From the NCBI GenBank assembly GCA_001004105.1, contig LCQK01000003.1, positions 46,805-110,804 of the forward strand: a DNA stretch of 64,000 bases. The letters run 5' to 3'. The notes beneath the pieces were generated by a model. The model saw nothing but the letters and a program-made list of their open reading frames with translations, did no database searches and was not told the DNA's origin. Shown piece after piece: positions 247 through 52,899 of the stretch (its first letter is position 1; the number at the start of each line of letters is the position of its first letter). This stretch comes from Candidatus Jorgensenbacteria bacterium GW2011_GWB1_50_10 (GTDB taxonomy: Bacteria; Patescibacteriota; Minisyncoccia; UBA6257; GWB1-50-10). Both the position numbers and the translations under genes were made by a program.

Positions 247-259
247 AAAGGTGCAGCCC

Positions 260-697: not shown

Positions 698-813
698 GAT
701 CCCTCCGCCCGTTGATTGTTTGTTTTACTCTAATTGCTCACTCCAGCATACACCTTTTCGTTTATATCTCAAGTCAGGTTGTTTATAATTATTAGTGGTT
801 AGACATTACTGAA

Positions 814-1308: not shown

Positions 1309-1329
1309 ATAGTTTATAATAATTGAGAT

Positions 1330-2358: not shown

Positions 2359-2359
2359 T

Positions 2360-2839: not shown

Positions 2840-2852
2840 TGATAAGATTAAT

Positions 2853-5085: not shown

Positions 5086-5105
5086 ATAGTTTATAATGAG
5101 AGATA

Positions 5106-8205: not shown

Positions 8206-8237
8206 CGCGAATCCCATTTTGTGGTAAAATTAGTTAA

Positions 8238-12053: not shown

Positions 12054-12749
12054 ATGGCGAAAAAGACGGATGAACTGGTGCAGTTTGCGGGCCACTTCCA
12101 GTCGCTCGCGACTGCGGTTTCCCGCAACCTCGAAGAGCGCGGCGTAAACGTTGTTGAGGCAATCGCGGAGGCCGCAAAGCCGCAAGGCGCTCGGGCGGTC
12201 GCGAAGATCGTAGACGCGCTCGCCGAACTCGTTGAAAACGGCAAGCGGGTCGTCGGCGCTCTCAATCTCATCGTGGCCGACATCGCCGTGAAGACCGAAC
12301 TCTTCACAAAAAATTCGTTCTTCGGCGAGGGGAGCCCAGTAAAACTCTACATCTGGGATAACTTCCGGAACTGGGTACTCACGGCTATCCTTGAGAATAT
12401 ACCTGCGTTCCAGGGTATGCTCGTGAAGCACCAACTCACGAAGGGGATGTATGACTCGGAGATTCTCTCCGGACTCGGGCATCCCACGCCGTTCTCACCA
12501 ACCGAGTTCGCGGCTGTCATTCGCGACCTCATCTCCAAGCAATCGAGAGGCGAGGAGGGCCTTCTCCTCACGAACGGCTACGCCAACATCTTCTATGTAC
12601 AGTTGCCTGCCGGCGCAGGCGGGGAAGATGCACGCGTGGTCGCGGTGCGCGTGACCTGGAACGCCGGGGACGACGACTGGCACCTGGACGCCTACGGCTT
12701 GGACGACGACGGGTGGGGTGACGGTGTCTGCGTGTTCTCTCGCAGCTGA
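12054..12749 (+). CDS. DGR target (variable) protein 1, 231 aa, unassigned family
   Basis: GC-rich ORF whose last 37 codons are the VR. It has no signal peptide or TM segment, and an SD-like AGAGAGG lies upstream of the ATG. A paralog lies at 48342..48932. Confidence 0.85.
   Translation: MAKKTDELVQFAGHFQSLATAVSRNLEERGVNVVEAIAEAAKPQGARAVAKIVDALAELVENGKRVVGALNLIVADIAVKTELFTKNSFFGEGSPVKLYIWDNFRNWVLTAILENIPAFQGMLVKHQLTKGMYDSEILSGLGHPTPFSPTEFAAVIRDLISKQSRGEEGLLLTNGYANIFYVQLPAGAGGEDARVVAVRVTWNAGDDDWHLDAYGLDDDGWGDGVCVFSRS
12602..12623. repeat. decayed copy of the 20-bp palindrome (17/20 with a 2-nt insertion) inside target 1, read as LPAGAGG
   Basis: GTTGCCTGCCGGCGCAGGCGGG lies 9 bp upstream of the VR. 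The paralog has a 6-codon shorter segment at this point (PEDGP versus LPAGAGGEDAR). Confidence 0.6.
12632..12743 (+). repeat. DGR variable repeat VR1
   Basis: 112 bp with 99/112 identity to the TR. All 13 differences lie at TR adenines. Confidence 0.9.
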
Positions 12750-12782
12750 TCTCGGATTTTCGGTCTCTTGGCAATAGTAGTG

Positions 12783-12823
12783 CGCCCCGTTCGAGTTCTT
12801 CGGAACTTGGACGGGGCGTTTTT
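12783..12823 (+). terminator. hairpin with UUCG loop plus T5 downstream of VR1 (intrinsic terminator and/or DGR target-recognition hairpin)
   Basis: 16-bp stem (12783-12798 pairs with 12803-12818, two G-U pairs), loop TTCG, then TTTTT. It starts 40 nt after the end of the VR. Confidence 0.7.
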
Positions 12824-12831
12824 GTTATAAT
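12823..12831 (+). promoter_or_regulatory. extended -10 box TGTTATAAT, candidate promoter of the TR-containing RNA
   Basis: A perfect TGnTATAAT sits directly after the terminator and about 170 nt upstream of the TR. I saw no convincing -35 box. Confidence 0.45.
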
Positions 12832-12998
12832 AAAAATGAAATTTTTTGACATCACTGCGGTCAAGGCTTCAGTGGGAAGATTTCAAAAAACAGAAAGGTC
12901 AGCTGGTGTAGGGCGCTAACGGGTGCGAAAGACCCGGCATTAGATGCAACGCTTAGAGGAATCAAAGCGCAGTGGCAAGGGCGGCGCTTTACACGATA

Positions 12999-13110
12999 AC
13001 GCGTGGTCGCGGTGAACGTGAACTGGAACGCCGAGAACGACGACTGGAACCTGAACGCCAACGGCTTGGACGACGACAGGTGGAATGACGGTAACTGCGT
13101 GTTCTCTCGC
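12999..13110 (+). repeat. DGR template repeat (TR)
   Basis: Non-coding and rich in AAC codons in the VR frame (encodes ...VNVNWNAENDDWNLNANGLDDDRWNDGNCVFSR). It is the adenine-bearing partner of VR1. Confidence 0.9.
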
Positions 13111-13125
13111 CGCTTACCTTTTATA

Positions 13126-13470
13126 TCAGTTCTTTGGGAGCTGTTTTAGCCAACCGCCCAGCATTTTTCCAACTTCGTCAACTTTTCCAGAAAGCGCGGC
13201 GTATTTTTTCGTGTCCAGAGATTTGATTTGCCAGGCAATTTGGAGGAAAAATTTTAGTGAGTCAAGTTTAAAAGAGGAATTCCTGATTTTTGCAAACCGT
13301 TCGGCTGGCGTGAGAGGGGCGGCTGAGAAAATTTCTTCGATAATATCCAAGAAAAGCAAATCTACTTTTACGCCGAGAGTATAGCGCGAGGTTTTGGGAA
13401 AATGAGGCGCGAATTCTTGCCAAAGCGTGTAGGCCGCGATTAGTTTCTGAATAATTGGCAGTTCATTCCG
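13126..13470 (-). CDS. avd: Avd-like accessory variability determinant (four-helix-bundle / 23S-IVS protein family); start codon unresolved
   Basis: The reading frame encodes NELPIIQKLIAAYTLWQEFAPHFPKTSRYTLGVKVDLLFLDIIEEIF...KYAALSGKVDEVGKMLGGWLKQ, a typical Avd pattern. There is no in-frame ATG, GTG or TTG upstream of 13359. An ATG at 13519 is out of frame by one base across a G9 tract. Confidence 0.7.
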   Translation of the reverse strand, partial: RNELPIIQKLIAAYTLWQEFAPHFPKTSRYTLGVKVDLLFLDIIEEIFSAAPLTPAERFAKIRNSSFKLDSLKFFLQIAWQIKSLDTKKYAALSGKVDEVGKMLGGWLKQLPKN

Positions 13471-13472
13471 TC

Positions 13473-13481
13473 GGGGGGGGG
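13473..13481. repeat. homopolymeric G9 (C9 on the avd strand) tract
   Basis: Nine consecutive G, 18-26 nt upstream of the RT ATG and inside the 5' region of avd. Loss of one base would fuse the ATG at 13519 to the avd frame. Confidence 0.9.
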
Positions 13482-13498
13482 TTAGAGGACGGGAATTT

Positions 13499-14482
13499 AT
13501 GAAAATTCAATTGAGCCATAAATTCGAAGATATTATTTCACTGGAAAATCTTTTGGAAGCATGGCGAGAATTTTTGCGCGGCAAGAGAAATAAAAGAGAC
13601 GTTCAGGAATTCTCATCGCGTTTAATGGATAACATTCTATTACTTCACAGCGAACTTCGCAATAAAACCTACAAGCACGGGAAGTACGAAGCCTTTAACA
13701 TCTCCGACCCCAAACCGAGAAACATCCACAAAGCCGCCGTCCGCGACCGCCTACTTCATTACGCTATTTACAGGGTTTTATATCCGTTTTTTGATAAGGT
13801 ATTCATCGCCGATTCTTTTTCCTGCCGTTTGGGAAAAGGGACGCACAGAGCCATCAACCGCTTTAGAACTTTTGCTTATAAAGTGAGTAAAAATAATACC
13901 AAAACCTGCTGGGTTTTAAAGTTGGATATTAGGAAATTCTTCGCGAGTATTGACCATGAAATTTTGATAAAAATTCTTGAGGAATACATACCCGACCAAG
14001 ACATTATCTGGTTGCTGAAGAAAGTGATAGAAAGTTTTTATTCGACCGAACCCGGCAAGGGCCTGCCTTTAGGCAATTTAACCTCCCAGCTTTTAGTAAA
14101 TGTTTACATGAACAAGTTTGACCAATTTGTGAAACACAAGTTCAAGGCCAAGTATTACGTGAGATACGCCGATGATTTTGTGATTGTGTCGAAAAACGGA
14201 ATATGGCTTGAAAGTTTAATTCCGAGAATCAGCGAATTTCTAAACAGAGAATTGAAGTTAAAACTTCACGACGATAAGATATTCATTAAAACTTTAGCTT
14301 CGGGAGTAGATTTCCTTGGCTGGGTTCACTTTCCGGATTACCGAGTTCTGCGAACCACGACCAAAAGAAGAATGTTTAAAAGAATCAAAGAACATCCCGC
14401 GCCGGAAACAATAAATTCTTATTTGGGATTATTAAGGCACGGGAACGCTTATAAATTAAAAAGAAAAATTATTGCTGAATAA
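13499..14482 (+). CDS. DGR-type reverse transcriptase
   Basis: 327 aa. The N-terminus reads [20 protein letters not shown]. Motif 4 [20 protein letters not shown] carries the SQ typical of DGR RTs, and the catalytic motif is [11 protein letters not shown]. There is no maturase or endonuclease extension, and the gene is visibly AT-rich. Confidence 0.9.
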
Positions 14483-14498
14483 TTTTTTTTGTGTTTTA

Positions 14499-15242
14499 AT
14501 GGCGTTTATGGAAGCTAGTATTAGCAAGATAATTTTAGAGATTCGGGCGGGCACGGGCGGGGACGAGGCCTCGCTTTTTGCCGGCGATTTGGCGCGGATG
14601 TATCAGAGGTTTGCCGCCCGGCGGGGCTGGAAATTCTCGACGCTCGATGCGAGCGAGTCCGGCGCGCGCGGCTATAAGACGTTCATCGCGGAGATCGGCG
14701 GCCCGGGCGTCTACGAGGCATTGAAGAACGAATCCGGCGTGCACCGGGTGCAGAGAGTGCCGGATACCGAACGGGGCGGCCGGGTGCATACCTCAACCGT
14801 ATCGGTCGCGGTTTTACCCGTAGTGGAAACCAAGGATTTTCAAATTAAAGAAAGCGATTTGGAAGTGACTTTCTCCCGCGCCGGCGGTCCCGGCGGCCAG
14901 AACGTGAACAAAGTGGAAACTGCGGTTCGAATCACCCATAAACCCACCGGCGTTGTCGTAGGTTCCAGGGAAGAACGGAGCCAGCACGCCAATCGCGAGA
15001 AAGCGATGGAGGTCTTGCGGGCCAAGCTTTACGAGGCGCAGAAAGAACAGCAAGTGGGGTCGGTTGCGGAGTTGCGGAGAGGGCAGATCGGCTCGGCCGG
15101 ACGGGCGGAGAAGGTAAGGACATATAATTTTCCGCAGGATAGAATTACAGATCACAGAGTAAGTAAAAAATGGAGTAATATTGAAAAGATATTAGAAGGT
15201 AATCTTGACCCAATCATACAGGCATTTTTGAAAGTCAATTAA
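14499..15242 (+). CDS. prfA: class I peptide chain release factor (RF1-like, PxT-type) lacking the N-terminal domain
   Basis: [27 protein letters not shown] (P-x-T), GGPGGQNVN (GGQ) and [14 protein letters not shown] motifs. RF1 homologs have about 100 more N-terminal residues. The start at ATG 14499 is inferred; the ORF track uses TTG 14472. Confidence 0.8.
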
Positions 15243-15248
15243 AAAATC

Positions 15249-15268
15249 CCTGCCTGCCGGCAGGCAGG
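15249..15268. repeat. 20-bp palindrome, copy 2 (junction between prfA stop and the displaced prfA 3' remnant)
   Basis: Exact CCTGCCTGCCGGCAGGCAGG, 6 nt after the prfA stop codon. Confidence 0.95.
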
Positions 15269-15379
15269 CGCACCTATAATTTTCCGCAGGACAGGATAAC
15301 CGACCACCGTCAGGGCAAAAAGGTTTCAAATATTCTGAAAGTTCTCGACGGCGATTTGGACAAACTAACCGGCCGTTAA
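15269..15379 (+). pseudogene. displaced original 3' end of prfA (36 codons plus stop, out of frame with prfA)
   Basis: Encodes [36 protein letters not shown]. It shares the 17-mer TATAATTTTCCGCAGGA with 15123-15139 and is GC-rich like the prfA core. Confidence 0.75.
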
Positions 15380-16870
15380 AATTTCTATATCCTTTTGGAA
15401 TTGCTGGGCTTTCACGACCACCGGTTCGCCGTAAGCCCAGCGGTAGTAATACCACCGGCCACCGGCGTAGTATCTTGCCGCGGCGCAGCGTTCGGCAAGG
15501 ACTTGGGCATCGGCGATGTTTCTGTTTTCGCTCACGTAATTCCGGCAAGCGCTGGAATTCAGGGCGTCTTTGAGATACAAGGAAGTCGCAACGAAAGCGT
15601 CGGCGTTTGACCAGGGATTGGAAGGAGTTTGGCCGGTGATTTTCCCAATATAATCCTTGCTTTGGTTATACTCCCAGGAACTGCCGTTTTTCTCCCAACC
15701 GCCGTAGATGGCCCAGGTTGAGGGAATGAATTGGGCCGGGCCCATGGCGCCGCCGTAGGCGCCGTCTCTGTTGGCACAGGAAACCTTCGCCACGGTTGAA
15801 TTCGGGTCAATGCCGAGCTTGGAAAGAATGGCGAGGAAAATCGGAACGTCGCGGGTGGGGTGCATGGCGCCCTGGTAGCTGCAGCGGCCGACGTTTTTCC
15901 CCAGAAGAGATTCTTGCTGAAGAATGGCGAGAAGAAAAGCGGCCCGGACCCCGGTTGCGCCTTCGGCAAGGCGGGCGTATTTATAGGCCTCTTCAAAAGT
16001 GAGTTCGCCGCCTCCCAAAAGACGGAAAATTCTGCTTCTTATTTGAGCGGCAGTGGCTTGGGTTTCTTTCAGGATTTTTTGGTATTCGGATTCTTTGCCT
16101 TTGGTTACGGTCAGAAGCTGATTTTTTTCCGCTTGGGTCGTCGCGACGCTCTTTTTTTGCGATTCCTGATAATTCTTGAGATTTTCCACGTCGGATTTTT
16201 CCGCGGCGAGCTCCTGTTTTTGCTCAAGCAATTCCACCCGAAGGGCGACAACTTCGTTTAAGGCCGTCCGGATGTTGGACTGAACCAGGGTTATGTTGTT
16301 GACGTCACCGAAGAAATCCGAAAGATTGGCATTGGCCAGCAACACCTCGATCAAGCTTTGGGCGTCGGCTTCATAGAGGTCGCGGACGCCTCTCGCAAGG
16401 GCCGTTTTATGGCCGTCAATTCTGTTTTCGGTAACGTTTATGTTCTTTTGAGTGCTCGTTATTTCGTCGTCCAATTTCTGGAGATTCAGGTTGACCGCTT
16501 TAATTTGGAGGTTCAACTGGCTGATTTTGGCGTTCAGGGATTTTATTTCGTTAGTGAGGGTTTTGCCCTGTTTTTGATATTCGGCAACCGTACTTTGATG
16601 TTCAAGGATTTGGCGCTCCAATTCGGCAAGTTCGTTTTCAAGTTTCTCCCGTTCTTCCTGGCTGGTCGCGCCGTTTTCCGTGCCCGTCATCTCGGCTGCC
16701 TGGGTCGGAGTGTTCAGTTTGGTTCCGAGAAGAAGCCCCGAAAAAGCGAGGAGAACCAAAACTCCTCCTACGAATTTGATTGATTTGGTAAGAGGGATCC
16801 GGATAGCGGTCGAATAGGAGAGATTGAGACGTCTTTTACGGCTGGCCTTAATATCGTAGATTTTGCGCAT
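15365..16870 (-). CDS. membrane-anchored coiled-coil protein with C-terminal lytic-transglycosylase-like domain
   Basis: N-terminal TM segment and a long heptad-like region ([16 protein letters not shown]...). The C-terminal part has [12 protein letters not shown] and [13 protein letters not shown], which are SLT/MltB-like motifs. Confidence 0.7.
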
Positions 16871-16979
16871 CTACTTAATATAATAACACTGATATATATT
16901 CTGTTTCATCCCGTTAGAGATTGCGCTCGCGCGCAAGCTCGCCCGAAAGGCCTTTGGGGCGGGCTATCTCTAAAAAGGA

Positions 16980-17669
16980 TTATTTTTTCTTCTCTTCTTC
17001 CTTGGGCGGTGTTTCTTTTTTCTCCGGCTCCGCTGCCTGCCTGCCGGTAGGCATGGCTTTCGCTTCGGTTTCGGCCGGAGCGGCCGGTGTTTCGGCTATC
17101 GGAGGCGGCGCAACAACTTCCTCCTTCACTTTTTCGGTTACGGTCGCAATCACGGTTTCCTCCGGCGCGAGAATTTTTACTTCGGAAGGCGCGCGCAGGT
17201 CGCTAACGTGGATGCTGTCGCCCATTTTCTCCAGCTTGCCCAAATCAACCTGAAAGGAGTGGGGGATTTTGTCGGGTAGGGATTTGACTTCAATTTCGTG
17301 CAGCACCCGGACGATCACCAAACCGGCTTTTTCCGCCGGAGCGGTGCCTGTGAATTCCACCGGCACTTTTGTTTCAATCGCCTCATCCATTTTAATTTGA
17401 TGGAAATTCACCGAAAGCGTTTTTCTGGTCAGGGGATGTTCCTGAACCTCGGAAATTAAGATTGGAATTTTTCCGCCCTTCTCGTTTATCAAATAAACGA
17501 CGGTGTGGCTGCCGGCTTTGCGGTAGACTTTAACGAAATCGTTTTCCGAAACGGCAAGGTGCTGGTTTAGAACGCCGCTCCCGAAAAGTTCGGCCGGAAC
17601 CAAACCCGCCCTCCGGAGGGATTTCACTTTTTTCCCCAAAATTTCCCTTGTTTTGACTGCGAGTTCCAT
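16980..17669 (-). CDS. rplY: 50S ribosomal protein L25/Ctc with low-complexity C-terminal tail
   Basis: GKKVKSLRRAGLVPAELFG N-terminus and the two-domain Ctc form. The Glu/Lys/Pro-rich tail contains a decayed palindrome copy. Confidence 0.85.
   Translation of the reverse strand: MELAVKTREILGKKVKSLRRAGLVPAELFGSGVLNQHLAVSENDFVKVYRKAGSHTVVYLINEKGGKIPILISEVQEHPLTRKTLSVNFHQIKMDEAIETKVPVEFTGTAPAEKAGLVIVRVLHEIEVKSLPDKIPHSFQVDLGKLEKMGDSIHVSDLRAPSEVKILAPEETVIATVTEKVKEEVVAPPPIAETPAAPAETEAKAMPTGRQAAEPEKKETPPKEEEKKK
17036..17055. repeat. decayed copy (18/20) of the 20-bp palindrome inside the rplY tail (MPTGRQA)
   Basis: CCTGCCTGCCGGTAGGCATG, with two substitutions relative to the consensus. Confidence 0.7.
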
Positions 17670-17675
17670 TTCTTT

Positions 17676-17900
17676 TTATTTTTTTGTTTTCTTCGTCCCA
17701 GCCTTAGCGCGTCTCGCCCGGAAGCGTTCCACCCGACCGGTTGTGTCAATCAACGTCTTCGCACCGGTGTAGAACGGGTGGCACTTGGAACAAATTTCCA
17801 CCTCGATTTTTTCCATGGTGGCGCCGACCGTAAATTTGTTGCCGCAGGCGCAAGTAACGTGGGCTTTGGGGTAGTATTGCGGGTGGATATCTTTTTTCAT
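17676..17900 (-). CDS. rpmE: 50S ribosomal protein L31
   Basis: [23 protein letters not shown]...[10 protein letters not shown]. The ORF-track start at 17984 was trimmed back to the conserved MKKDIHP start. Confidence 0.9.
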
Positions 17901-17912
17901 AGGTTTTAGCTC

Positions 17913-17932
17913 CCTGCCTGCCGGCAGGCAGG
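17913..17932. repeat. 20-bp palindrome, copy 3 (12 nt upstream of rpmE start codon)
   Basis: Exact 20-mer. On the rpmE strand its 3' end together with the next base reads AGGGAG, 9 nt before the ATG. Confidence 0.95.
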
Positions 17933-17969
17933 TATTATTTATACATATAGTAATAGGACTGGCAAGTGC

Positions 17970-17997
17970 TTGACACCGATACAAAGTTTCCTATAAT
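17970..17997 (+). promoter_or_regulatory. consensus sigma-70 promoter for the 16S rRNA gene
   Basis: TTGACA (17970-17975), a 16-bp spacer, then TATAAT (17992-17997). This is about 170 nt upstream of the mature 16S 5' end. Confidence 0.7.
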
Positions 17998-18115
17998 GAA
18001 AGCATTATGTAGCACGGGTTTTTAAAACTTCTGTAATATGAGTTTTAAGACACCCGCGATGGGTGTTTTGTTATCCCCGATACATAACGCAAATTGAAAA
18101 CTCCACCAGTAATTG

Positions 18116-18137
18116 AAAACTTTTTTAGTTGTCCCAA
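18116..18137 (+). other. 5' arm of the pre-16S processing stem
   Basis: AAAACTTTTTTAGTTGTCCCAA is the perfect reverse complement of 19780-19801. Confidence 0.8.
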
Positions 18138-18165
18138 TTTATTTTGAATTTGGAAAGCCAAATTC

Positions 18166-19651
<1,486 letters not shown>

Positions 19652-19779
19652 TATTCTCTTCAGAGAGAGTAATAGTCGATTGCAAGATTGCTGACTGCAG
19701 GGTTCGTAATTCAGAATTCTGCAATGAGCAATTAGCAATAAAATTAGAGGTGTTAGTCGTGGAGCCTGAAGTCACGACC

Positions 19780-19801
19780 TTGGGACAACTAAAAAAGTTT
19801 T
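19780..19801 (+). other. 3' arm of the pre-16S processing stem
   Basis: TTGGGACAACTAAAAAAGTTTT pairs perfectly (22 bp) with 18116-18137. The stem encloses the 16S gene only. Confidence 0.8.
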
Positions 19802-19806
19802 TAATG

Positions 19807-19948
19807 AAAAGAAAGCGAGAATACCCTCGCTACCGTTCGCTCGCCCAGCGAGCTCGCTCACTTGCACTCTCGCCTCGCTCGTCCCGCCAAGCGGGACACC
19901 GTGCCCGCTCGGCTCAAGAGCGGCGCTCGAATATTCTCGCTTTCTTTT
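19807..19948 (+). other. 142-nt GC-rich multi-hairpin element closed by a 17-bp stem (terminator or unknown structured RNA)
   Basis: AAAAGAAAGCGAGAATA (19807-19823) pairs with TATTCTCGCTTTCTTTT (19932-19948). The interior holds three small hairpins: GCTCGC/GCGAGC, TCCCGC/GCGGGA and CCGCTC/GAGCGG. Confidence 0.5.
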
Positions 19949-19981
19949 GCGTGGGGCAGGAAGGAATAGTATAATAATGTT

Positions 19982-20359
19982 ATGCCCGACCAGAAAACCA
20001 TCCTTTTAGTTGAAGACGAACCGCTTCTTGCGAATCTTCTGAAGCAGCGCCTGGAGAAAGAGGGTTACACAATGCTTTCCGCCGGCGACGGAGAGGAAGC
20101 GCTTTCCGTTCTAAAGGCAAATCATCCGGACCTGATACTTCTTGATATCATTTTGCCAAAAATGTCCGGCTTTGAACTGATGGAAAAATTGAAGGACAAC
20201 CCGGCTTACGGCTCATCGCCCATCGTTATCATTTCCAATTTGGGGCAGGACTCAGATATAGAGAAAGGAAAGATACTCGGCGCTATCGGTTACTTTGTCA
20301 AGGCCAAGCTTTCCATTGAGGATTTAATTAAAAGAATCAAGAGTTTTCTTAACGCCTGA
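19982..20359 (+). CDS. single-domain response regulator (CheY-like receiver)
   Basis: ILLVEDEPLL...DLILLDIILPKMSGFEL...KAK receiver motifs. A TATAAT box at 19970-19975 lies 6 nt before the ATG. Confidence 0.9.
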   Translation: MPDQKTILLVEDEPLLANLLKQRLEKEGYTMLSAGDGEEALSVLKANHPDLILLDIILPKMSGFELMEKLKDNPAYGSSPIVIISNLGQDSDIEKGKILGAIGYFVKAKLSIEDLIKRIKSFLNA

Positions 20360-20440
20360 TTTATTCAAGTAAACCTAGGTTGCATACCCCCTGTGGATAA
20401 GTGCACTATCCGGGAGGGGTTAATTTGATATACTAAAAGA

Positions 20441-21038
20441 ATGAAAAAAGGTTTTACTCTTATCGAGCTTCTGGTCGTTATCGCCATTTTGGCGGTTCTT
20501 GCGACCGCAGTGGTCTTGGCTATCAACCCGGCCGAGCTCGGCCGAGCTCATTCGGCAGGCGCGGGATTCCACGAGAATCTCGGATTTGGCGGCAATAAAC
20601 AGCGCCATCGCTCTCTATTTGTCGGACATTACTTCTCCCGGCTTGGGTGGTCCGAATGGTGCTTCCTGCACTAACGCTGCCCGTTGCACTTCTGGGACAA
20701 CCGAATTTTTCTCGGCGAGCATTGGGAGCTGCGGGACAAACGCCACGACCACTGTTGACGGCAACGGCTGGGTGTCGGTTGATTTAGCGGACATCTCGAG
20801 CGGTTCGCCGCTCTCCCGTCTGCCCCTTGACCCCAATAATGGCCAAGGAAGCGGCGATTGCGCCGCCGATGGCACGACTATTTGCTTCTACGCCTTCGGC
20901 TGTAATGGCACGAACTACGAAATTAACGCGGTAATGGAGAGCACGAAATTCGCCGATGACGGCGGTGCCGCCGTTGAAGATACGGACGGCGGGGACCAAC
21001 TGGATATCTACGAAGTAGGGAACAATCTAGCCCTATAG
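20441..21038 (+). pseudogene. type IV pilin gene A, frameshifted by a 10-bp tandem duplication
   Basis: MKKGFTLIELLVVIAILAVLATAVVLAINPAEL runs in frame 1. GGCCGAGCTC is then duplicated (20530-20539 and 20540-20549), and the pilin continues in another frame (IRQARDSTRISDLAAINS...EVGNNLAL*). Removing one unit restores a pilin of about 195 aa. Confidence 0.8.
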
Positions 21039-21043
21039 CTTCA

Positions 21044-21596
21044 ATGAAAAAAGGTTTTACTCTTATCGAGCTTCTGGTCGTTATCGCCATTTTGGCGGTT
21101 CTTGCGACCGCAGTGGTCTTGGCTATCAACCCGGCGCGTTTCTGACATTGCCGCGGTTAATAGTGCGGTTATTCTTTATCTTGCTGATGTTAGAACTCCT
21201 GGCTTAGGCGGTCCTAATGATGCGGCCTGTTCTTCGGCAACGGAACGTTGCACTGCCTCAAGCACAACAGCCAGGAAAACCGGCGGCGGTTCTTGCACCA
21301 CGCATAATACATCAACTATCGTTGACGGCAACGGTTGGGTGTCGGTTGATTTTTTGAATATTTCTTCGGATTCACCGCTATCTCGACTGCCATTCGACCC
21401 GAATAATGGGTCAACTATCTGCGGAACAGGCGTTAATGCTTGCTACTACTCATTTATTTGCAACGGCACAAGTTTTGAGATAAATGGCGCGATGGAGAGT
21501 ACTAAATTTTCTAATACTGGCGGCTCTGACGTGGAGTCCGATGATGGCGGCAATCAGGCAGACCTCTACGAGGTAGGCAACAAGCTGGATATTTAA
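21044..21596 (+). pseudogene. type IV pilin gene B, frameshifted by a deletion of about 32 nt
   Basis: The first 92 nt are identical to gene A. After INPA, the region coding ELIRQARDST is missing (1 nt in place of 33), which gives a stop at 21140-21142. The rest of the pilin (RVSDIAAVNS...EVGNKLDI*) continues in another frame. Confidence 0.75.
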
Positions 21597-21605
21597 TTTA
21601 AGTTA

Positions 21606-22196
21606 ATGAACTTTGCCGGCGCTTCTTCTTTGGCGGTTTTAGTTGCCGCTTTTATTTTTCAGCTCGTTGTCTATTGGTTTAAGTCCTATAAATCTAATTG
21701 GACTCTTATTGCTTATAGGGTTAACAAGTCGCTCTTTTGGCTTGCCGCCGTTTTTGTTTTTCTTCTCTACCTCTACCTCGTCTATGCTCAATTTATTGCC
21801 TGGCGTGATGGCGGGGAACTGCTAAAACGTTTAGTGCCCCCTTACCAGAGCGTCACCTATGTTTTCGGTTATCATTTCACCCGTTTCGCGCTCTATTATT
21901 TGATTTCATTTGCCGCCTCCGTGTTGTTTTTATCGGCGGTAACTTTTTTAAATAAAAAGTTCAACGAGAAGTTCTTCGAAAAAGAAGAGCCTTATCTCGG
22001 CGCTATCGCCATTTTTCTGCTCGGCAATCCTTTATGGCGATTTGCCTGGATTTATTATTTGATAGCGTTACTTGCCGTTGCTTTTGTCGGGTCATTAGTC
22101 GTGAGTCACGTGTTAAAGAAAAGCGAGCGTTTCTCTTTATATTATTTATGGCTGCCGGTTGCTATTCTTACCTTGTTGCTGGTGAAATTTTTGTGA
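21606..22196 (+). CDS. polytopic membrane protein, unknown function
   Basis: About 6 predicted hydrophobic helices by eye. No prepilin-peptidase Asp motifs are recognisable. Confidence 0.6.
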   Translation: MNFAGASSLAVLVAAFIFQLVVYWFKSYKSNWTLIAYRVNKSLFWLAAVFVFLLYLYLVYAQFIAWRDGGELLKRLVPPYQSVTYVFGYHFTRFALYYLISFAASVLFLSAVTFLNKKFNEKFFEKEEPYLGAIAIFLLGNPLWRFAWIYYLIALLAVAFVGSLVVSHVLKKSERFSLYYLWLPVAILTLLLVKFL

Positions 22197-22367
22197 TTGG
22201 CTACCCACGCCCTAATTTTGTAAGTGTTTCCGCGGCAACCCGCTTCGCCCACCGAGGGGTGTGCCTATTCGGCACACGCAGGTTGGTGGAGATTGACTAA
22301 AATTGTGTTAGTTCAAAATTTGGAAAGGTTCTCACGGCAAAATTAGAGCGGGGTACTCAATTTTATG

Positions 22368-22395
22368 TTAAAATTTAACCAAGGTTAAATTTTAA
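22368..22395. promoter_or_regulatory. 28-bp AT-rich palindrome upstream of pilB
   Basis: TTAAAATTTAACC AA GGTTAAATTTTAA has 13-bp perfect arms and ends 10 nt before the pilB ATG. Confidence 0.5.
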
Positions 22396-22405
22396 TAAAA
22401 TTGGT

Positions 22406-24124
22406 ATGATAAACCTCCCTCCCGAAAAATTGAAAGATATTTTGGTAAAGCAGGGGCTTATTGACCCCGCTCTTTTTGATAATCTTCAAATTGAATCCCA
22501 GAGAAAAAGGCAAGACCTCGCGGATATTCTCATCTCGCAGGGCTTGGTCAATAAAGATTACCTTTATCTTCTAATCGCCCGGGCGCTTGGCGTGGAACGG
22601 GTTAATCTGGGAGTGATGAAAATAGACGAAAACATCCTTCGTTTGATTCCTGAAGACGCCGCCCGGCGCCGAAATGTGATTGTCTTCGGCCGGGAAGCCG
22701 ACGGCAGATTTCAAGTGGCGATGGATAACCCAACCGATTTAGAAACCATTGATTTTCTCCAGCTTCGTTTGGGCGGGCCCGTGAAACCGTATCTTGCGAC
22801 TGACGAAGATTTAAACCGCGGTTTTTCGCTTTACGAAAAACGCCTCACCCAGGATTTCAAGAAAATAATTGAGGAGAGTGTCAAAGAGTCGCTGCGCTCC
22901 AAAGCCAAGGGCGATTTAAAAGAAGCGGCCTCCGATTTGCCGATCGTCGCCATCGTTGACAATCTGATGGCTTACGCGCTCTCTTCCCGCGCTTCGGACA
23001 TTCACTTTGAGGTTTTAGACGATGGAGTTTTGGTTCGCTATCGGATTGACGGTGTGCTCCACGAGGTTATCAGGATGCCGAAGGAAATCCACGCTGCCAT
23101 TGTCGCCCGCATAAAGATTTTGGCAAGCCTGCGCGTTGACGAGCACTACCGCCCCCAAGACGGCCGCTTCCGCCATAAAATCGGCGACGAATTAGTGGTG
23201 GATGTCCGCGTCTCCATCATCCCAACTTTTTACGGCGAAAAGGTTGAGCTGCGGCTTCTAGCTGCCGCCCAGAAACCCCTATCGCTTTCCGAAATCGGCG
23301 CCTCCGAAGACACGGTAAAGGTTATTCGGGAAGCCATTAAAAAAAGCTACGGAATGGTTTTAATTTGCGGTCCGACTGGTTCCGGTAAAACGACCACGCT
23401 GTACTCCATTATGAACATTTTAAATAAGCCAGACGTGAACATCATTACCGTTGAAGACCCGATTGAGTACGACATGCGCTACGTAAATCAAGTGCAGGTG
23501 AATGTCCAGGCTGGCATTACTTTTGCCTCCGGCCTGCGTTCTCTTTTAAGACAGGACCCGAACATCATTATGGTCGGCGAAATCCGCGACTCGGAAACCG
23601 CCAACATCGGCGTACAGGCGGCCCTGACCGGCCACCTGATGCTTTCTAGTTTGCACACCAATGATGCCCCGACCGCCGTGCCGCGGCTTATGGATATGGG
23701 TATCCCACCGTTTCTCGTGGCCGCAGTTTTGAATGCCGTGAGCTCCCAACGCTTGGCCCGCCGGATTCATTTGGAGTGCATTGAATCATACGCGCCCGAG
23801 GCAAGCGTTCGTGCATCCATCAGCAAAACTCTAGAGGAAATCGGCGCCGACCAGAGCCAAGTCAGAATCCCCAAGATATTTTATCGGGGCCGGGGCTGCG
23901 CCGCCTGTAATCATTCCGGTTATTACGGCCGCATAGGTCTCTTTGAAACTTTAGACGTCACCGAAAACGTGAGGAAAATCATTATTGACAGGAATTTTAG
24001 TTTGGACAATTTGCGGAAGGTCGGTCGCGAAGAGGGGATGACGACGATTTTTGAAGACGGTTTGCGGAAGGTGGAGCGCGGCTTAACAACCATCGAAGAA
24101 TTATTTAGAGTTATAAGAGAGTAA
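22406..24124 (+). CDS. pilB: type IV pilus assembly ATPase (GspE/PilB family)
   Basis: Walker A GPTGSGKTTT, an Asp box, Walker B IIMVGEIRD, a His box, and a tetracysteine CxxC...CxxC region. Confidence 0.92.
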   Translation: MINLPPEKLKDILVKQGLIDPALFDNLQIESQRKRQDLADILISQGLVNKDYLYLLIARALGVERVNLGVMKIDENILRLIPEDAARRRNVIVFGREADGRFQVAMDNPTDLETIDFLQLRLGGPVKPYLATDEDLNRGFSLYEKRLTQDFKKIIEESVKESLRSKAKGDLKEAASDLPIVAIVDNLMAYALSSRASDIHFEVLDDGVLVRYRIDGVLHEVIRMPKEIHAAIVARIKILASLRVDEHYRPQDGRFRHKIGDELVVDVRVSIIPTFYGEKVELRLLAAAQKPLSLSEIGASEDTVKVIREAIKKSYGMVLICGPTGSGKTTTLYSIMNILNKPDVNIITVEDPIEYDMRYVNQVQVNVQAGITFASGLRSLLRQDPNIIMVGEIRDSETANIGVQAALTGHLMLSSLHTNDAPTAVPRLMDMGIPPFLVAAVLNAVSSQRLARRIHLECIESYAPEASVRASISKTLEEIGADQSQVRIPKIFYRGRGCAACNHSGYYGRIGLFETLDVTENVRKIIIDRNFSLDNLRKVGREEGMTTIFEDGLRKVERGLTTIEELFRVIRE

Positions 24125-24130
24125 AATTTT

Positions 24131-25342
24131 ATGCAATATCATTACATCGCATCGCAGCCGGACGGCAAGGTGTCTGAAGGTGACGTTGACGCCAAGGACG
24201 TTGCCGAAGTCCTGACGTATCTTACCTCGCATGGGCTTCGGCCGGTTTCCGTAAAGCCGATTGCGCAAATTTCCAAAAAGAAAAGGTTGGGTCTTTTTGG
24301 CGGGACCATTAATCTAACCGACCAGATATTCCTCTCAAAATATCTGGCGCTGATGCTCAAAATCGGCACAAGCTTATTGCAAGCTATTAATATCTTGGTT
24401 GAAGATTTTCAGAAATCGTCCGTGCGGGCTTTTTTAGTGGAAATCCGCTCCAACCTTGAAAAGGGCCGACCCTTTCATACAACCTTCGCCAAATATCCGA
24501 AAATCTTCAGCCAGGTCTACATTAATCTGGTGAAAGCCGGCGAGGCCTCCGGCAACCTGGAAAATGTTTTTGAAAACCTGACGGCATCTCTCTCTAAAGA
24601 AAAAATGCTCAAAGACCAGATGCGGAGCGCGCTCGTTTACCCGATTTTGCTTCTTGTTACTTCCGCACTGATTTTGGTGTTTCTCGTCACCTTTGCCCTG
24701 CCGAAAATAGCCGGCGTTTTTTTGGAATCGGGTTTTGAGCCGCCTCTTTTTTCAAGAGTTGTTTTTAGTATCGGCCTTTTCTTCGGCAAGTTCGGGATTC
24801 TTGTGATAGCTGCCGTCTTCGGCGGTGCGATTGCGCTTGTTGCGGCCTACCGTTCCTTGCTTTTGTTCAAAAAATTCGTCACCTCCGTCATAAGTGAAAT
24901 CCCCGTCATTAAAGACATTATCAGAAAAATTGCCCTCCAGCGTTTTGCCGCTACCCTTGCATCGCTCATTAAAGCCGGCGTGCCATTAACCAATGCTCTT
25001 GAAATTACTGCTGATGCCGCTGGCAACATTGAGTTGAAACAGGCGCTTTTGCGGATTTCTCGGGAAGGATTAATGAAAGGGCTTACCGTGGGCGATGCCT
25101 TTAAAAGGGAACCATTTTTCCCGCGAACCGTCGTTAATTTAGTCGCTATTTCCGAAAAAGCCGGTCATATTGAAGAGGTTTTGGAAACGCTTGCTGATTT
25201 CTACACTTCGGAAATTGATAGTTCCTTAAAGACGCTTGTTTCATTCCTCGAGCCCGCTCTTCTTCTTGTTATCGGTTTTATAATTGGCTTGATTGCCCTT
25301 GCTATAATAGTGCCTATTTACCAGCTTACCACCCAATTCTAA
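24131..25342 (+). CDS. pilC: type IV pilus platform protein (GspF/PilC family)
   Basis: Two T2SSF repeats with a three-TM-block topology, located directly after pilB. Confidence 0.9.
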   Translation: MQYHYIASQPDGKVSEGDVDAKDVAEVLTYLTSHGLRPVSVKPIAQISKKKRLGLFGGTINLTDQIFLSKYLALMLKIGTSLLQAINILVEDFQKSSVRAFLVEIRSNLEKGRPFHTTFAKYPKIFSQVYINLVKAGEASGNLENVFENLTASLSKEKMLKDQMRSALVYPILLLVTSALILVFLVTFALPKIAGVFLESGFEPPLFSRVVFSIGLFFGKFGILVIAAVFGGAIALVAAYRSLLLFKKFVTSVISEIPVIKDIIRKIALQRFAATLASLIKAGVPLTNALEITADAAGNIELKQALLRISREGLMKGLTVGDAFKREPFFPRTVVNLVAISEKAGHIEEVLETLADFYTSEIDSSLKTLVSFLEPALLLVIGFIIGLIALAIIVPIYQLTTQF

Positions 25343-26430
25343 TGAGGGGCTTTACTCTTATAGAAGTTTTAATAACGGTCGCAATTATTACAGCCGTTTC
25401 CGCGGCCGGTTATGTCGCGTTTTCCAAGTTCAAAGGTTCGCAAGCCGTTGAGCTCACAATGAACGAAATTACGGCCGTCATAAAGGACGTCCAAAAAAGA
25501 GCAGTGACACAGCAGGACGGCAAGCAATGGGGGCTCCGTTTCACTAATTCAACGTCAACCACGCACAGCTATCAGGTTTGGAGCGGTCCGAGCTATGCTT
25601 CGGGAACGATTAGCAGGACCTATTACCTCGGTCGCGGCACGCTCTTCGGCAACCCCGCCGACGATCTGAATGTAGACGAAATTTTCTCGGCGATAAGCGG
25701 GAAGCTCTTGGAGACAAGAGTCATTTCTTTAATAAATCGAAGAAAAGATGGTGTTGTCGGCGACATAATTCTTACTTCCCGGGGCGCGATTACAACGAGA
25801 AAAGAGAGCGGTCTTGTCGGCTATTGGCATTTTGACGAGAGTACAGCAACAACGACTTATGACGCTTCGGGGTTTGCCAATGCCGGCACGCTCACCAACG
25901 GTCCGGCATGGCAATCGGCGTCTAATTGCAAGGCGGGGACATGTTTGAGTTTTGACGGGACGAATGATTATGTGAATGTGATTGATTCAGCCTCACTCGA
26001 TATCACTGGCGCAATCACTGTTAGCGCTTGGGTATACGCGGATAGTTACCCCTCTACTTATCCAACGGTAGTGGCAAAAGGAAACTCCGCAAGCGCTTGG
26101 GAGCTTGACGTGAAGAATGATGGAACGATCGAATGGGAAGGGTTTATCGGTGGTACTCAAAGGATTTGCAATGGTGGCTCATTTAACCTTAACCAGTGGG
26201 TTTATATTGTAGGCCTATTTGATGGTAGCGACATGAAAATATTCGTTAATGGTTCAGAGGTGAAGTCATGTTCTTTCCCAGGGGTGTTAGGTACAAATAA
26301 TTCTGCCTTGGAAATCGGTTCCAGAACCAATGGAGGCGCCGTTTGGGACGGTTTTATTGATGGAGTCCGTATCTACAACAGCGCCTTGAGCGCCCAGGAA
26401 ATTTTGAATTTATATAATGATTTAAAATAA
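25342..26430 (+). CDS. prepilin-type pseudopilin with LamG domain
   Basis: MRGFTLIEVLITVAII leader and methylation motif, then GLVGYWHFDESTATTTYDASG...FDGTNDY and GVRIYNSALSAQEI. Confidence 0.8.
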   Translation: MRGFTLIEVLITVAIITAVSAAGYVAFSKFKGSQAVELTMNEITAVIKDVQKRAVTQQDGKQWGLRFTNSTSTTHSYQVWSGPSYASGTISRTYYLGRGTLFGNPADDLNVDEIFSAISGKLLETRVISLINRRKDGVVGDIILTSRGAITTRKESGLVGYWHFDESTATTTYDASGFANAGTLTNGPAWQSASNCKAGTCLSFDGTNDYVNVIDSASLDITGAITVSAWVYADSYPSTYPTVVAKGNSASAWELDVKNDGTIEWEGFIGGTQRICNGGSFNLNQWVYIVGLFDGSDMKIFVNGSEVKSCSFPGVLGTNNSALEIGSRTNGGAVWDGFIDGVRIYNSALSAQEILNLYNDLK

Positions 26431-26434
26431 ATTT

Positions 26435-27700
26435 ATGAGAAGGTTCTGGCGCGATATAAAAGGACAAAGTTTGATTGAAGTTTTAATCGGTTTGGCGATT
26501 GGTGCCGTTTTAATCGGCGCTGCGAGTTTGGGCGTTACTTTCATGCTTCGCTCTAGCGCCGCCAGTCAGAATGTTCAGATTGGAACGGGTCTTGCCCAAG
26601 ATTTGGTGGACAAGGCTCGTTCCGTATCGGCCGCCAAGTGGCAGGATATTTACCACCTCACCAAAGGAACGAGCACATCTTATTTTGTAAATGCTTTTGG
26701 CACGCAGCTTGTTGTTGTAGAAGGTCAGGAAGGCGTTATCAGCAATGAAAATACGAATGGTTTGGTCGGTTACTGGAAGTTTGATGAGGCGACGAGTACG
26801 GCGACTACTACGACCTTCGACGCTTCCGGAAAGTCCAACCACGGCACTCTCACGAGCGGCGTTTCAAGAGCTACCTCAACTTGTAAAGTTAGTTATTGTT
26901 TGGATTTTGATGGAGTGGATGATTATGTTGATTCCGGAAGCGGTTCAAGTTTGGATATTACTCAAAATGTAACACTCGTGTCGTGGGTTAAGTTGGATAC
27001 TTATACCTCGGGCGGCACTAACACTGACAGGGCAAGCATTGTGCAGAAGACGGGGCAATATTATATGACAGTGAATTCAGCAAACGGAACACTCGACGCC
27101 TTCTTTGGTGGGGTCACTGGTAGTCATACGCCTTCAAATTCTACAGTTTCATTGAATCAGTGGATGCACACCGCAATCACTTATGATGGTGCAAATATAA
27201 AATGGTATATAGACGGTGTTTTAGACAAAACATCGGCCGCGACCGGTACCATTACTAGTGATCCCCGAAGCGTTCGTATCGGCGGGGAACCGGCTTTTGG
27301 TCGTTTTCTGAACGGTTCCATTGACGAAGTCCGCGTCTACAACCGCGCTCTTTCCGCCGACGAAATCCAGCGGCTTTGGAATTCCGTGCCTTTCACGCAT
27401 TACTTTAACGTTGGAAACGTAAACCGCGATACGAACGGCAATATTGTTTCCTCCGGCGGAAATGAAGATCCTTCAACCCAAAAAATCACGGTGACTGTGC
27501 AGTGGCCGGGGAGCGGCAGTAATGTCGGTCAGATTCAAATTGTTGATTATTTAACCCGCTGGCAGAACCAAGTGTTTCAGCAAAGCGATTGGCTGGGTGG
27601 TTCTGGCCAAATAGGCCCGATTACCTTACCGAATTCTAAATACGACAGCGCGACGAGCGTTTCCAACCCCGCCGGTTCAATCAGAATTCAAGGACTATAA
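26435..27700 (+). CDS. prepilin-type pseudopilin with LamG domain
   Basis: GQSLIEVLIGLAIGAVLIG N-terminus, then GLVGYWKFDEATS...FDGVDDY and EVRVYNRALSADEI. Confidence 0.75.
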   Translation: MRRFWRDIKGQSLIEVLIGLAIGAVLIGAASLGVTFMLRSSAASQNVQIGTGLAQDLVDKARSVSAAKWQDIYHLTKGTSTSYFVNAFGTQLVVVEGQEGVISNENTNGLVGYWKFDEATSTATTTTFDASGKSNHGTLTSGVSRATSTCKVSYCLDFDGVDDYVDSGSGSSLDITQNVTLVSWVKLDTYTSGGTNTDRASIVQKTGQYYMTVNSANGTLDAFFGGVTGSHTPSNSTVSLNQWMHTAITYDGANIKWYIDGVLDKTSAATGTITSDPRSVRIGGEPAFGRFLNGSIDEVRVYNRALSADEIQRLWNSVPFTHYFNVGNVNRDTNGNIVSSGGNEDPSTQKITVTVQWPGSGSNVGQIQIVDYLTRWQNQVFQQSDWLGGSGQIGPITLPNSKYDSATSVSNPAGSIRIQGL

Positions 27701-29727: not shown

Positions 29728-32076
29728 ATGTTTTATTTCATTTTAATAGCCGTTTGCGCCGCTCTTTTAATTTGGGGCGGCTGGTTTCTAAGAAAGCGTT
29801 TAAAATTACGCCATCACCTTGATGTTTTGGGGATGAAGCTGTATCTTGTGCGTCTCCCGAAGAGCGGAAAAGAAGGCAAGGACTTGAAACAGGAAATAAA
29901 TTTGTCCGAGCAGCTTTTTACGGCCCTCGCGAGTTTCGGTAAGCCATTTGTTTTTGAAATCGCCGTGCCGTACGTGGGCGAAGAGATTCATTTTTTTGTC
30001 GGCGTTCACCGCTCTTTCAGCGAGGCGTTAGTGCGCCAAATTCAAGCTATTTGGCCCGACGCCGATGTCCGCCCCACCGACGATTACAATATTTTCAATT
30101 ACTCGGGCCGGACCTTGGGCGCGAGCGTGGTTTTGAGCGAGAGATTTGTTTTGCCGGTCCGGACTTATGTCGAAGTCGGCGCTGACACGTTCCTGCCCTT
30201 TTTGGGCGCTTTCTCCAAAATCAGCGAGCTCGGCGAGGGCGGCGCCATTCAGTTCGTGATTCGGCGGGCCGAAAGAAGCCGTTATAAAAAAGAAATAAAT
30301 TCCGCTCTGAAGTTTTTGAAGAAAGGCGGCAGTTTGAGTGAAATTCTCAGTCACCCCCTTTCGCTTTCTTTGGAAGATGTTGGTAAAGTGCTCCACGGCG
30401 AAGAAAAATTAAAAAAAGGAAATTATATTCTCGATGAAGCGAGCATTAAAACGCTTGAAATCAAGCTCGCCAAACAGCTTTTTGAAGTGAATGTCAGGAT
30501 TTTTGCTTCGGGACCGAGCAATTTCAAGGCAGAGGAGATTTTCGGGGGACTCGCCGCCGGCTTTTCTCAATTTGGAGCGCTCCAACGTAATTCTTTTAAA
30601 GTCGTTCAGCCGAAAAACATCAAAGGTCTGGTTCACGAGTTTTCTTTCCGCGAATTTAATTCTAACGAAGCAATGGTTCTTACAAGCGAAGAATTGGCAA
30701 GTATTTTTCATTTCCCGACGGCTTTTACTGAAACGCCGAAAATCAAGGAATTGAAAGCTCGGGAGGCGACGCCGCCGGCGAACCTTCCCAAAAACGGCGT
30801 GATGTTGGGCCTTGCTTCTTTTCGGGGCGGGAGCGAGGAGGTAAAAATCACCGACGACGATCGGCGGCGCCATCTTTACCTTATCGGCCAGACCGGCACC
30901 GGCAAATCCAATTTGCTTCTTAATATGGTCTCCGACGACCTGCGGAACGGGAAGGGACTCGCTGTTTTGGACCCCCACGGCGATTTGGTGGAGGAAATTT
31001 TAGGGCTTATGCCGAGCGGAAGAATGAAGGATGTCGTCGTTTTTGACCCGGGCGACATTGAGCGGCCTCTGGGTTTAAACATGATTGAATACAATTTCAG
31101 CCGGCCGGAGGAGAAGACGTTTATCGTGAATGAAATGCAGAATATTTTCAACAAGCTTTTTACGGCTGAAACAATGGGACCGATGTTCGAGCAGTATATG
31201 CGCAACGCCCTGTTGCTTTTGATGGAGGATATGCAGAGCGACCCGGCGACCTTAATGGAAATTTCACGGGTTTTCACCGACTCCCTTTTTCGGAAAACAA
31301 AACTCACTCGGACCAAAAATCCGGCGGTCTATGATTTTTGGGAAAAGGAAGCAGTTAAAGCCGGCGGCGAGGCGGCACTCGCCAATATGACTCCCTACAT
31401 CACTTCCAAGTTCAATAATTTTACGGCGAACGATTTTATGCGCCCCATCATCGGCCAGGTTAAATCGGCTTTTAACTTCAGAGAATTGATGGACGACGGC
31501 AAGATCTTGCTCGTCAATTTGTCCAAAGGCAGAATCGGCGACATCAACGCCAATCTCTTGGGTATGATTATTACCGGCAAGATTTTGATGGCCGCGCTCT
31601 CAAGGGTGGACGTCCCCGAAGACAAAAGAAAAGATTTTTATCTCTACATCGACGAGTTCCAGAATTTCACGACCGATTCCATTGCCGTGATTTTGTCGGA
31701 AGCGCGGAAATACCGGCTGAACCTCGTGATTGCCCACCAGTTTATCGGCCAGCTTACCGAGAAAATAAGGGATGCGGTTTTTGGCAACGTCGGGTCGCTC
31801 GTTGCTTTCCGGGTCGGGGCGCAGGATGCCGAATTTCTAACGAAGCAGTTTGCGCCCGTCTTCAGCGAGCAGGACCTTTTGAACATTGATAATTTCAACG
31901 CCTACGTTAAACTTCTTATAAATGGGGAGACCTCAAAACCCTTTAATATCAAAACCGTGCCGGCGCCGAAGGGGGAAAGAAACCTAGCAGAGCGCATTAA
32001 AGAAAATTCCAGAAATTTTTACGGTCGGGGGCGCGCCGAGGTGGAAGAAGAAATATACAAGCGATTGAGAACTTAA
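29728..32076 (+). CDS. TraD/VirD4-like (T4SS coupling protein-like) P-loop ATPase fused to an N-terminal TM plus uncharacterised domain
   Basis: Walker A GQTGTGKSNLL and Walker B LYIDEFQNF, plus an AHQFIGQL motif. N-terminal residues 1 to about 330 are homologous to the separate ORF 60165..61556. Confidence 0.75.
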   Translation: MFYFILIAVCAALLIWGGWFLRKRLKLRHHLDVLGMKLYLVRLPKSGKEGKDLKQEINLSEQLFTALASFGKPFVFEIAVPYVGEEIHFFVGVHRSFSEALVRQIQAIWPDADVRPTDDYNIFNYSGRTLGASVVLSERFVLPVRTYVEVGADTFLPFLGAFSKISELGEGGAIQFVIRRAERSRYKKEINSALKFLKKGGSLSEILSHPLSLSLEDVGKVLHGEEKLKKGNYILDEASIKTLEIKLAKQLFEVNVRIFASGPSNFKAEEIFGGLAAGFSQFGALQRNSFKVVQPKNIKGLVHEFSFREFNSNEAMVLTSEELASIFHFPTAFTETPKIKELKAREATPPANLPKNGVMLGLASFRGGSEEVKITDDDRRRHLYLIGQTGTGKSNLLLNMVSDDLRNGKGLAVLDPHGDLVEEILGLMPSGRMKDVVVFDPGDIERPLGLNMIEYNFSRPEEKTFIVNEMQNIFNKLFTAETMGPMFEQYMRNALLLLMEDMQSDPATLMEISRVFTDSLFRKTKLTRTKNPAVYDFWEKEAVKAGGEAALANMTPYITSKFNNFTANDFMRPIIGQVKSAFNFRELMDDGKILLVNLSKGRIGDINANLLGMIITGKILMAALSRVDVPEDKRKDFYLYIDEFQNFTTDSIAVILSEARKYRLNLVIAHQFIGQLTEKIRDAVFGNVGSLVAFRVGAQDAEFLTKQFAPVFSEQDLLNIDNFNAYVKLLINGETSKPFNIKTVPAPKGERNLAERIKENSRNFYGRGRAEVEEEIYKRLRT

Positions 32077-52878: not shown

Positions 52879-52899
52879 AAGCTCTGTTATAATAAACTT

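Follow-up and report, generated by a model that had tools for sequence, protein, structure and literature searches.

Frameshifts in a tandem type IV pilin pair of GW2011_GWB1_50_10 most likely arose from contig stitching at an exact repeat

The genome behind bin GW2011_GWB1_50_10 carries, with a probability that we put at about nine in ten, two intact tandem type IV pilin genes, and the two lesions that break them in the public record are stitching errors at a 93-nt repeat. That the lesions are not a property of the organism is almost certain. They are private to one assembly, the sequences flanking them are identical in other assemblies, and the repeat at which they lie fragments or corrupts other assemblies as well. 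Throughout the text, the window is the whole stretch of 64,000 nucleotides that was analysed, and positions are those of the window.

The type IV pilus operon

The pilin pair belongs to a type IV pilus operon that is conserved in Parcubacteria/Paceibacteria relatives, where the response regulator is followed by two (sometimes three) short pilins, a small membrane protein, PilB, PilC and, last, large Laminin_G_3 pilins. The corresponding genes of the window, together with a more distant homolog, are listed here.

19982 to 20359, plus strand: single-domain response regulator (Pfam Response_reg) at the operon head, a position conserved in relatives
20441 to 21038, plus strand: pilin gene A, type IV pilin, 195 aa once the probably spurious second 10-mer is left out
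21044 to 21596, plus strand: pilin gene B, type IV pilin, 194 aa with 32 nt put back, the exact protein being recorded on 7 contigs
21606 to 22196, plus strand: 196-aa membrane protein between the pilins and pilB, conserved, without a Pfam family
22406 to 24124, plus strand: PilB-type assembly ATPase (MshEN and T2SSE, the latter with E=1.9e-117)
24131 to 25342, plus strand: PilC-type platform protein (T2SSF)
25342 to 27700, plus strand: two large pilin-like proteins of 362 and 421 aa, each with N_methyl and a Laminin_G_3 lectin-like domain
6961 to 8205, plus strand: distant third homolog, a 414-aa pilin with Laminin_G_3, its 5' block only 67% identical (nucleotide)

Both intact short proteins are recognisable as type IV pilins. 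They show the prepilin motif (Gly-1, Phe+1, Glu+5 and a hydrophobic helix of some 20 residues) as MKKG/FTLIELLVVIAILAVLATAVVL, i.e. G/FTLIE, and hit the Pfam domain N_methyl above its cut-off (E=1.4e-8), and their genes adjoin those for the assembly ATPase (PilB/GspE) and the platform protein (PilC/GspF). The AF2 model of intact A (pLDDT 87.5) has a helix at residues 7-59 and a beta-rich head, so that the predicted structure shows the pilin lollipop fold of a long N-terminal alpha-helix on a beta-sheet head. The family comprises at least 1486 proteins at E<=1e-10. Among the 68 members that were aligned for conservation G4, F5 and E9 are invariant, and the segment ELIRQxRDST, which is garbled or lost in the window, is nearly invariant. 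All four syntenic relatives have intact tandem pilins. A prepilin peptidase (PilD, Peptidase_A24) was found neither among the window proteins scanned, which cover a subset of the ORFs, nor in the precomputed Pfam lists, and a promoter and terminator scan of 19900-22500 gave nothing beyond the shuffled background. A complete 16S rRNA gene (18166-19651, plus strand) stands alone directly upstream of the operon, with no 23S, 5S or tRNA gene alongside and no tRNA gene in the whole 64 kb.

Two lesions at one repeat

A preliminary description of the window had reported that the two short pilin genes share an identical 5' block of 92 bp, followed in gene A by a 10-bp tandem duplication and in gene B by the absence of about 32 nt. 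These observations are exact. The 92-nt string that starts at the ATG occurs exactly twice in the window, at 20441-20532 and 21044-21135, with 0 mismatches, where shuffled sequences lead one to expect no second copy. Counting the A ahead of the ATG the identity extends to 93 nt and ends there on both sides; its 3' end reads GTGGTCTTGGCTATCAACCCGGC, a string that is contained in JGI contigs. In the true (intact) sequence the 93 identical nt are followed by one C/T mismatch and 8 further identical nt, giving about 102 nt of near-identity. Beyond the repeat block nucleotide identity between the intact genes falls to 59% and amino-acid identity to 60%, in keeping with the moderate similarity noted before. 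The elements at the two genes are as follows.

20440 to 20532, plus strand: repeat copy 1 (93-nt exact direct repeat), 5' end of gene A, coding for MKKGFTLIELLVVIAILAVLATAVVLAINPA; kept in all other assemblies
20540 to 20549, plus strand: second copy of GGCCGAGCTC, probably an error of the left join, where a 10-nt overlap of contigs went unrecognised; missing from the 15 other assemblies that cover the junction
21043 to 21135, plus strand: repeat copy 2 (93-nt), 5' end of pilin gene B
21134 to 21136, plus strand: loss of 32 nt, probably the right stitching error, with the codons AELIRQGRDST; the 32 nt are present in 12 other assemblies

In gene A the 10-mer GGCCGAGCTC stands twice at 20530-20549, and deleting one copy in silico restores an uninterrupted ORF of 195 aa (MKKGFTLIE...YEVGNNLAL). 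Gene B halts after 33 codons (21044-21145), and the rest of the pilin stays open in the +1 frame over 21102-21596. Alignment with other assemblies shows it to be short by 32 nt precisely (GCTGAGCTCATAAGACAAGGAAGGGATTCAAC, with 2 nt of ambiguity in the placement), and the left breakpoint of this loss can be set right at the final base of the exact repeat. Each lesion leaves exactly one extra base, and the +1 frame runs on across both, so that the frames do remain open as had been described. The lesion junctions read GAGCTCGGCCGAGCTC and AACCCGGCGCGTTTC (as strings for junction 31-mers, ...CCGGCCGAGCTCGGCCGAGCTCATTCGG... and ...TATCAACCCGGCGCGTTTCTGACATT...), their intact counterparts AACCCGGCCGAGCTCATTCGGCAGG and AACCCGGCTGAGCTCATAAGACAAGG. 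The resulting frameshift ORFs of 77 and 33 aa are the entries KKW14852.1 and KKW14853.1 of GW2011_GWB1_50_10, contig UY55_C0003 (112,868 bp), and each of them is recorded from one contig only.

Other assemblies of the same population

The bin stems from the acetate experiment in the Rifle aquifer of 2011, which was sampled at six time points on filters of 0.1 and 0.2 um and sequenced as 150-bp paired reads, with assembly by IDBA_UD (PMC4742961). Library GWB1 is that of time point B and the 0.1 um filter (BioProject PRJNA268031). The GC content of the window (about 49-50%) agrees with the '50' in the bin name. By the same naming convention we take the trailing '10' to mean roughly 10x coverage. 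The proteins of the two flanking genes, i.e. the response regulator and the 196-aa membrane protein, were looked up by exact match, and each turns up on 17 contigs of ENA, JGI, NCBI and Logan assemblies. Between these flanking genes those assemblies call a 195-aa and a 194-aa protein, both with the N_methyl motif, and a multiple alignment shows a single 10-mer in gene A and the extra 32 nt in gene B.

Junctions were counted in assemblies, not reads, by a string search over all fetched loci together with a look-up of the intact A protein. The A junction is intact in 15 other Rifle groundwater assemblies (ERZ27254732, ERZ27254728, ERZ27254749, GCA_001002095.1, GCA_001003525.1, ERZ909588/89/90, ERZ909576, ERZ28564339, ERZ28564304, ERZ28563784 and JGI 3300025030, 3300025012 and 3300025117) and the B junction in 12; the lesion strings occur solely in the window, and no assembly covering the junctions has a hybrid A/B junction. 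The intact proteins are recorded on 9-11 contigs for A and on 7 for B (NCBI, JGI, ENA). Compared with a 226-kb MEGAHIT contig of ERZ27254732 the window is 100% identical over 15982-26196 save for the two indels, and in the stretches 1-11373 and 27773-50975 it differs from other assemblies by 0-2 mismatches per 23 kb. The source population is thus near-clonal, with the window matching other assemblies over about 50 kb. Past each lesion the coding sequence equals the intact allele base for base, and in gene A one JGI contig has a single-base difference. Essentially one in-frame allele is therefore seen at both sites across the other assemblies, a result that the preliminary description had itself named, at the level of reads, as a sign of assembly error. 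No tie between the runs SRR1658343, SRR1658462 or SRR1658465 and sample GWB1 was found in the literature.

Recombination or slippage at a hotspot, with on/off switching of the pilins, had been proposed for the two sites, and this proposal is not supported by the census, in which the lesion alleles number 0/15 at the A junction and 0/12 at the B junction. A reversible phase-variation switch or a programmed +1 ribosomal frameshift, by which a full-length pilin would still be made or toggled, could draw on the one extra base left by each lesion and on the +1 frame that is open across both. However, the 10-mer is single in every other assembly without copy-number variation, slippage cannot revert a 32-nt deletion, no frameshift is conserved in the four syntenic relatives or among the 68 aligned homologues, and a read-through of B would still be without ten nearly invariant residues; we regard this reading as very improbable. 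As a slipped-strand contingency locus the site was rejected since the 10-mer is double in the window only and the B lesion is a 32-nt deletion of unique sequence, and as a gene with programmed ribosomal frameshifting since each pilin is one continuous ORF in the orthologs and elsewhere in the same population.

Cassette exchange in the style of pilE/pilS had also been suggested. The frameshift ORFs come from one contig only, and in the relatives the tandem pilins are intact throughout. Neither copy is a silent partial one, each being a complete gene that has a start codon and the entire constant region, and in place of coexisting hybrid or variant alleles the junctions and flanking genes are identical in all covering assemblies; the cassette model was rejected on these grounds. 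Least probable of all is that the genes are fixed pseudogenes of a decaying pilin pair, as had been offered for the case of degenerating frames. Both frames are indeed broken in the window record, but the reading is refuted by the intact alleles of the same population, whose flanks are 100% identical; the frames downstream are free of further mutations, and the pair is intact in relatives.

Some smaller differences between assemblies were seen elsewhere. The sole other private indel found in about 50 kb affects a GGCA unit at 15259 in an intergenic hairpin: the palindrome CCTGCCTGCC/GGCAGGCAGG (15245-15275), which follows the release-factor gene, has one GGCA unit fewer than in ERZ909590, and this may be either true microsatellite variation or an error. 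Near the 16S rRNA gene (window 18900-19980 against L013 1-1583, L002 613-1000 and L006 1-2400) some assemblies diverge, with 89.7% identity or 11 SNPs, and locus L006 has a different neighbourhood upstream of the response regulator, with a Mur ligase and a glucosaminidase. These differences suggest that related strains or species are present, or else that contigs were joined chimerically at the conserved rRNA gene.

The pilin repeat as an assembly breaker

Nine contigs, taken from different assemblies, have their start or their end within the pilin repeat. In three assemblies free contigs of 648-720 nt (L025-L027) consist exactly of repeat, body of A and repeat, and one scaffold (L013) has 100 Ns within repeat copy 1. 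A second assembly of the same study, also made with IDBA-UD (L011; GCA_001003525.1, LCPI01000003.1), is mis-stitched around the piece that corresponds to window 20440-20990: it has lost 141 nt to the left and 46 nt to the right of the piece (window equivalents 20299-20439 and 20991-21036), and each loss reaches up to the left edge of a repeat copy. From these losses results KKU94110.1 (L011 2542-3501), annotated as a 319-aa 'two-component response regulator', which is a fictitious fusion of response regulator and pilin. The originating laboratory has described local assembly errors, with unrecognised overlaps at scaffold joins, as prominent in IDBA-UD (PMC7111523, Chen et al. 2020, Genome Res). 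The anomaly of the window is missing from independent assemblies of the organism, and it coincides with the boundaries of a repeat that breaks other assemblies.

The two lesions would follow from a single fragmentation event. An IDBA-UD assembly of 150-bp reads at about 10x would have broken at the pilin repeat and left the body of gene A with repeat copy 2 as a separate piece of about 596 nt.

20540 to 21135, plus strand: putative 596-nt repeat-bounded contig (gene A body and repeat copy 2), whose ends are the two lesions

Three pieces would then have been joined into one scaffold with both joins wrong. The left join would have abutted ends that overlap by 10 nt, leaving GGCCGAGCTC twice, and the right join ends that really lie 32 nt apart, with the loss of these 32 nt. 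The contig has no Ns at the joins, so that the scaffolding step is an inference, and the exact mechanism of stitching and the coverage figure have the same standing. The lesions strike the same codon of the two paralogs because both would be ends of one repeat-bounded contig, and the two independent indels of the preliminary description become two ends of one piece. Its fallback explanation, strain heterogeneity collapsed by the assembler, holds in so far as the assembler is at fault; the cause appears to be a badly stitched repeat-bounded contig and not collapsed heterogeneity.

The most serious competitor is that both lesions are real and belong to a strain or subpopulation that dominates GWB1, the edge of the gene-conversion tract being a mutational hotspot and both short pilins being knocked out. 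Both lesions do lie at the boundary of a tract that recombines, real replication errors can take the form of a tandem duplication or of a deletion flanked by 2-nt microhomology (GC...GC), and the census of intact alleles was drawn from other assemblies, none of them tied to the GWB1 library itself. Against this, neither lesion occurs in the 15 (A) and 12 (B) other assemblies of the same aquifer time series, and the lesion ORFs are missing from the ENA, JGI and Logan reassemblies. Two indels would have arisen yet zero SNPs in the surrounding 10 kb, and the frames downstream are base for base those of the intact alleles. Moreover, the lesions fall just where a piece ends that is isolated by other assemblers too, and an assembly from the same pipeline is damaged differently at the same repeat, which a biological hotspot at the 3' edge leaves unexplained. 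We therefore consider real lesions improbable. The narrower claim, genuine alleles of a GWB1 subpopulation in which the 3' edge of the conversion tract is a hotspot that silences both short pilins at once, we hold to be slightly more doubtful still; were it true, it would give a CPR bacterium a crude 'off' state for its only short-pilin pair.

In a third genome of the study, GCA_001002095.1 (L003/L014, LCLN01000039.1, 3055-4697), we observed a private loss of 76 nt within pilB (window 22608-22683), in the 10-kb stretch that also holds the pilin pair, which splits the gene into ORFs of 86 and 467 aa; the 572-aa gene is intact in all other assemblies. This loss is probably another local assembly error.

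Gene conversion of the 5' ends

The gene-conversion-like tract of the preliminary description is real. It is present in long contigs assembled at k=141 that span both copies together with their unique flanks, and synonymous sites within it are identical. Over codons 1-31 A and B use the same codon at 30/30 informative positions, compared with 37% same codons in the rest of the gene where the amino acids are identical; under independence the identity of the tract would have a probability of about 8e-14. Judged by this codon usage, the 93-nt 5' identity of the two pilins reflects gene conversion. Relative L030 has its own identical tract of 113 nt with a different sequence, while relatives L028 and L029 have none, and therefore homogenisation is sporadic and lineage-specific. 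This amounts to ordinary concerted evolution, acting on the segment of the tandem paralogs that is conserved best, and no evidence for a switch, a hotspot or pseudogenes was found at the pilin pair.

Other elements of the window

A diversity-generating retroelement lies at 12054-14482, with VR at about 12632-12745, TR at about 12999-13112 and a reverse transcriptase (RVT_1 ORF) at 13499-14482. Its repeat pair is 140 nt long, the TR/VR mismatches within the target ORF all fall at TR adenines (15 A-to-N), and the target is a 231-aa protein ending in ...GVCVFSRS. A second possible target, a paralogous protein at 48252-48932, has a copy that has diverged further (60%). The full release-factor gene (14472-15242) is closely followed at 15262-15372 by a stray duplicate of its C-terminus (36 aa). 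This duplicate lies in another frame and looks like the relic of a gene fragment. At 52843-52879 and 53420-53456 two nearly identical 37-nt palindromes (GCCTCAAAA.ATCAGTATATGCTGA..TTTTGAGGCA) flank a gene for a 170-aa PaaX_M protein (Cas2-like domain) at 52900-53412. Finally, two ATPases at 29728-32076 and 62106-63587 have DUF87/TrwB/T4SS-DNA_transf signatures (VirB4- or VirD4-like) and may be part of a type IV secretion or conjugation-like system of Patescibacteria.

Implications

The value of these results lies chiefly in quality control. On the reading as stitching errors, three GenBank/UniRef entries describe nonexistent proteins, namely KKW14852.1 (77 aa), KKW14853.1 (33 aa) and KKU94110.1 (319 aa), and analyses counting pseudogenes, frameshifts or pilin repertoires in these widely used CPR genomes would be led astray. 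The lack of an intact short pilin for the PilB/PilC machinery, which the preliminary description had drawn for the case of real lesions, is likewise an artefact of one assembly. The locus may serve as a worked example of how one small repeat-bounded contig gives two lesions that mimic mutations arising independently at homologous codons of paralogs. What the organism really has is a conserved pair of tandem pilins with a constant 5' end homogenised by gene conversion, which fits known multigene pilin loci and is unsurprising.

Comparison with known systems

In the pilE/pilS system of Neisseria the silent copies have neither a promoter nor the 5' constant region, and it is the variable 3' part that conversion shuffles. 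The pilin pair resembles this system in having several pilin copies with non-reciprocal sequence transfer among them. It differs in that both copies are complete genes in one operon, that the homogenised part is the constant 5' end, and that variant or hybrid alleles are not seen in 15 assemblies. Contingency loci have long tracts of 1-7-nt units whose copy number varies in a population. Slipped-strand phase variation likewise shifts the frame by a change in repeat copy number, whereas here the 10-mer is single-copy everywhere but in one assembly.

The closest parallel to the lesions is given by the described IDBA-UD errors (PMC7111523). The window differs from them in that its joins are without Ns and that the case is known from assemblies alone. 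It agrees with them in that the lesions lie at repeat boundaries, with one duplicated overlap and one loss at the joins, and in that laboratory, assembler and data type are the same and the broken ORFs have spread into public protein databases. The intact locus in turn resembles the type IV pilus operons of Patescibacteria/CPR, e.g. of Saccharibacteria (PMC11623550), with which it shares the G/FTLIE motif, a long N-terminal helix with a beta-rich head, PilB and PilC encoded alongside, and the presence of several pilin genes in one locus.
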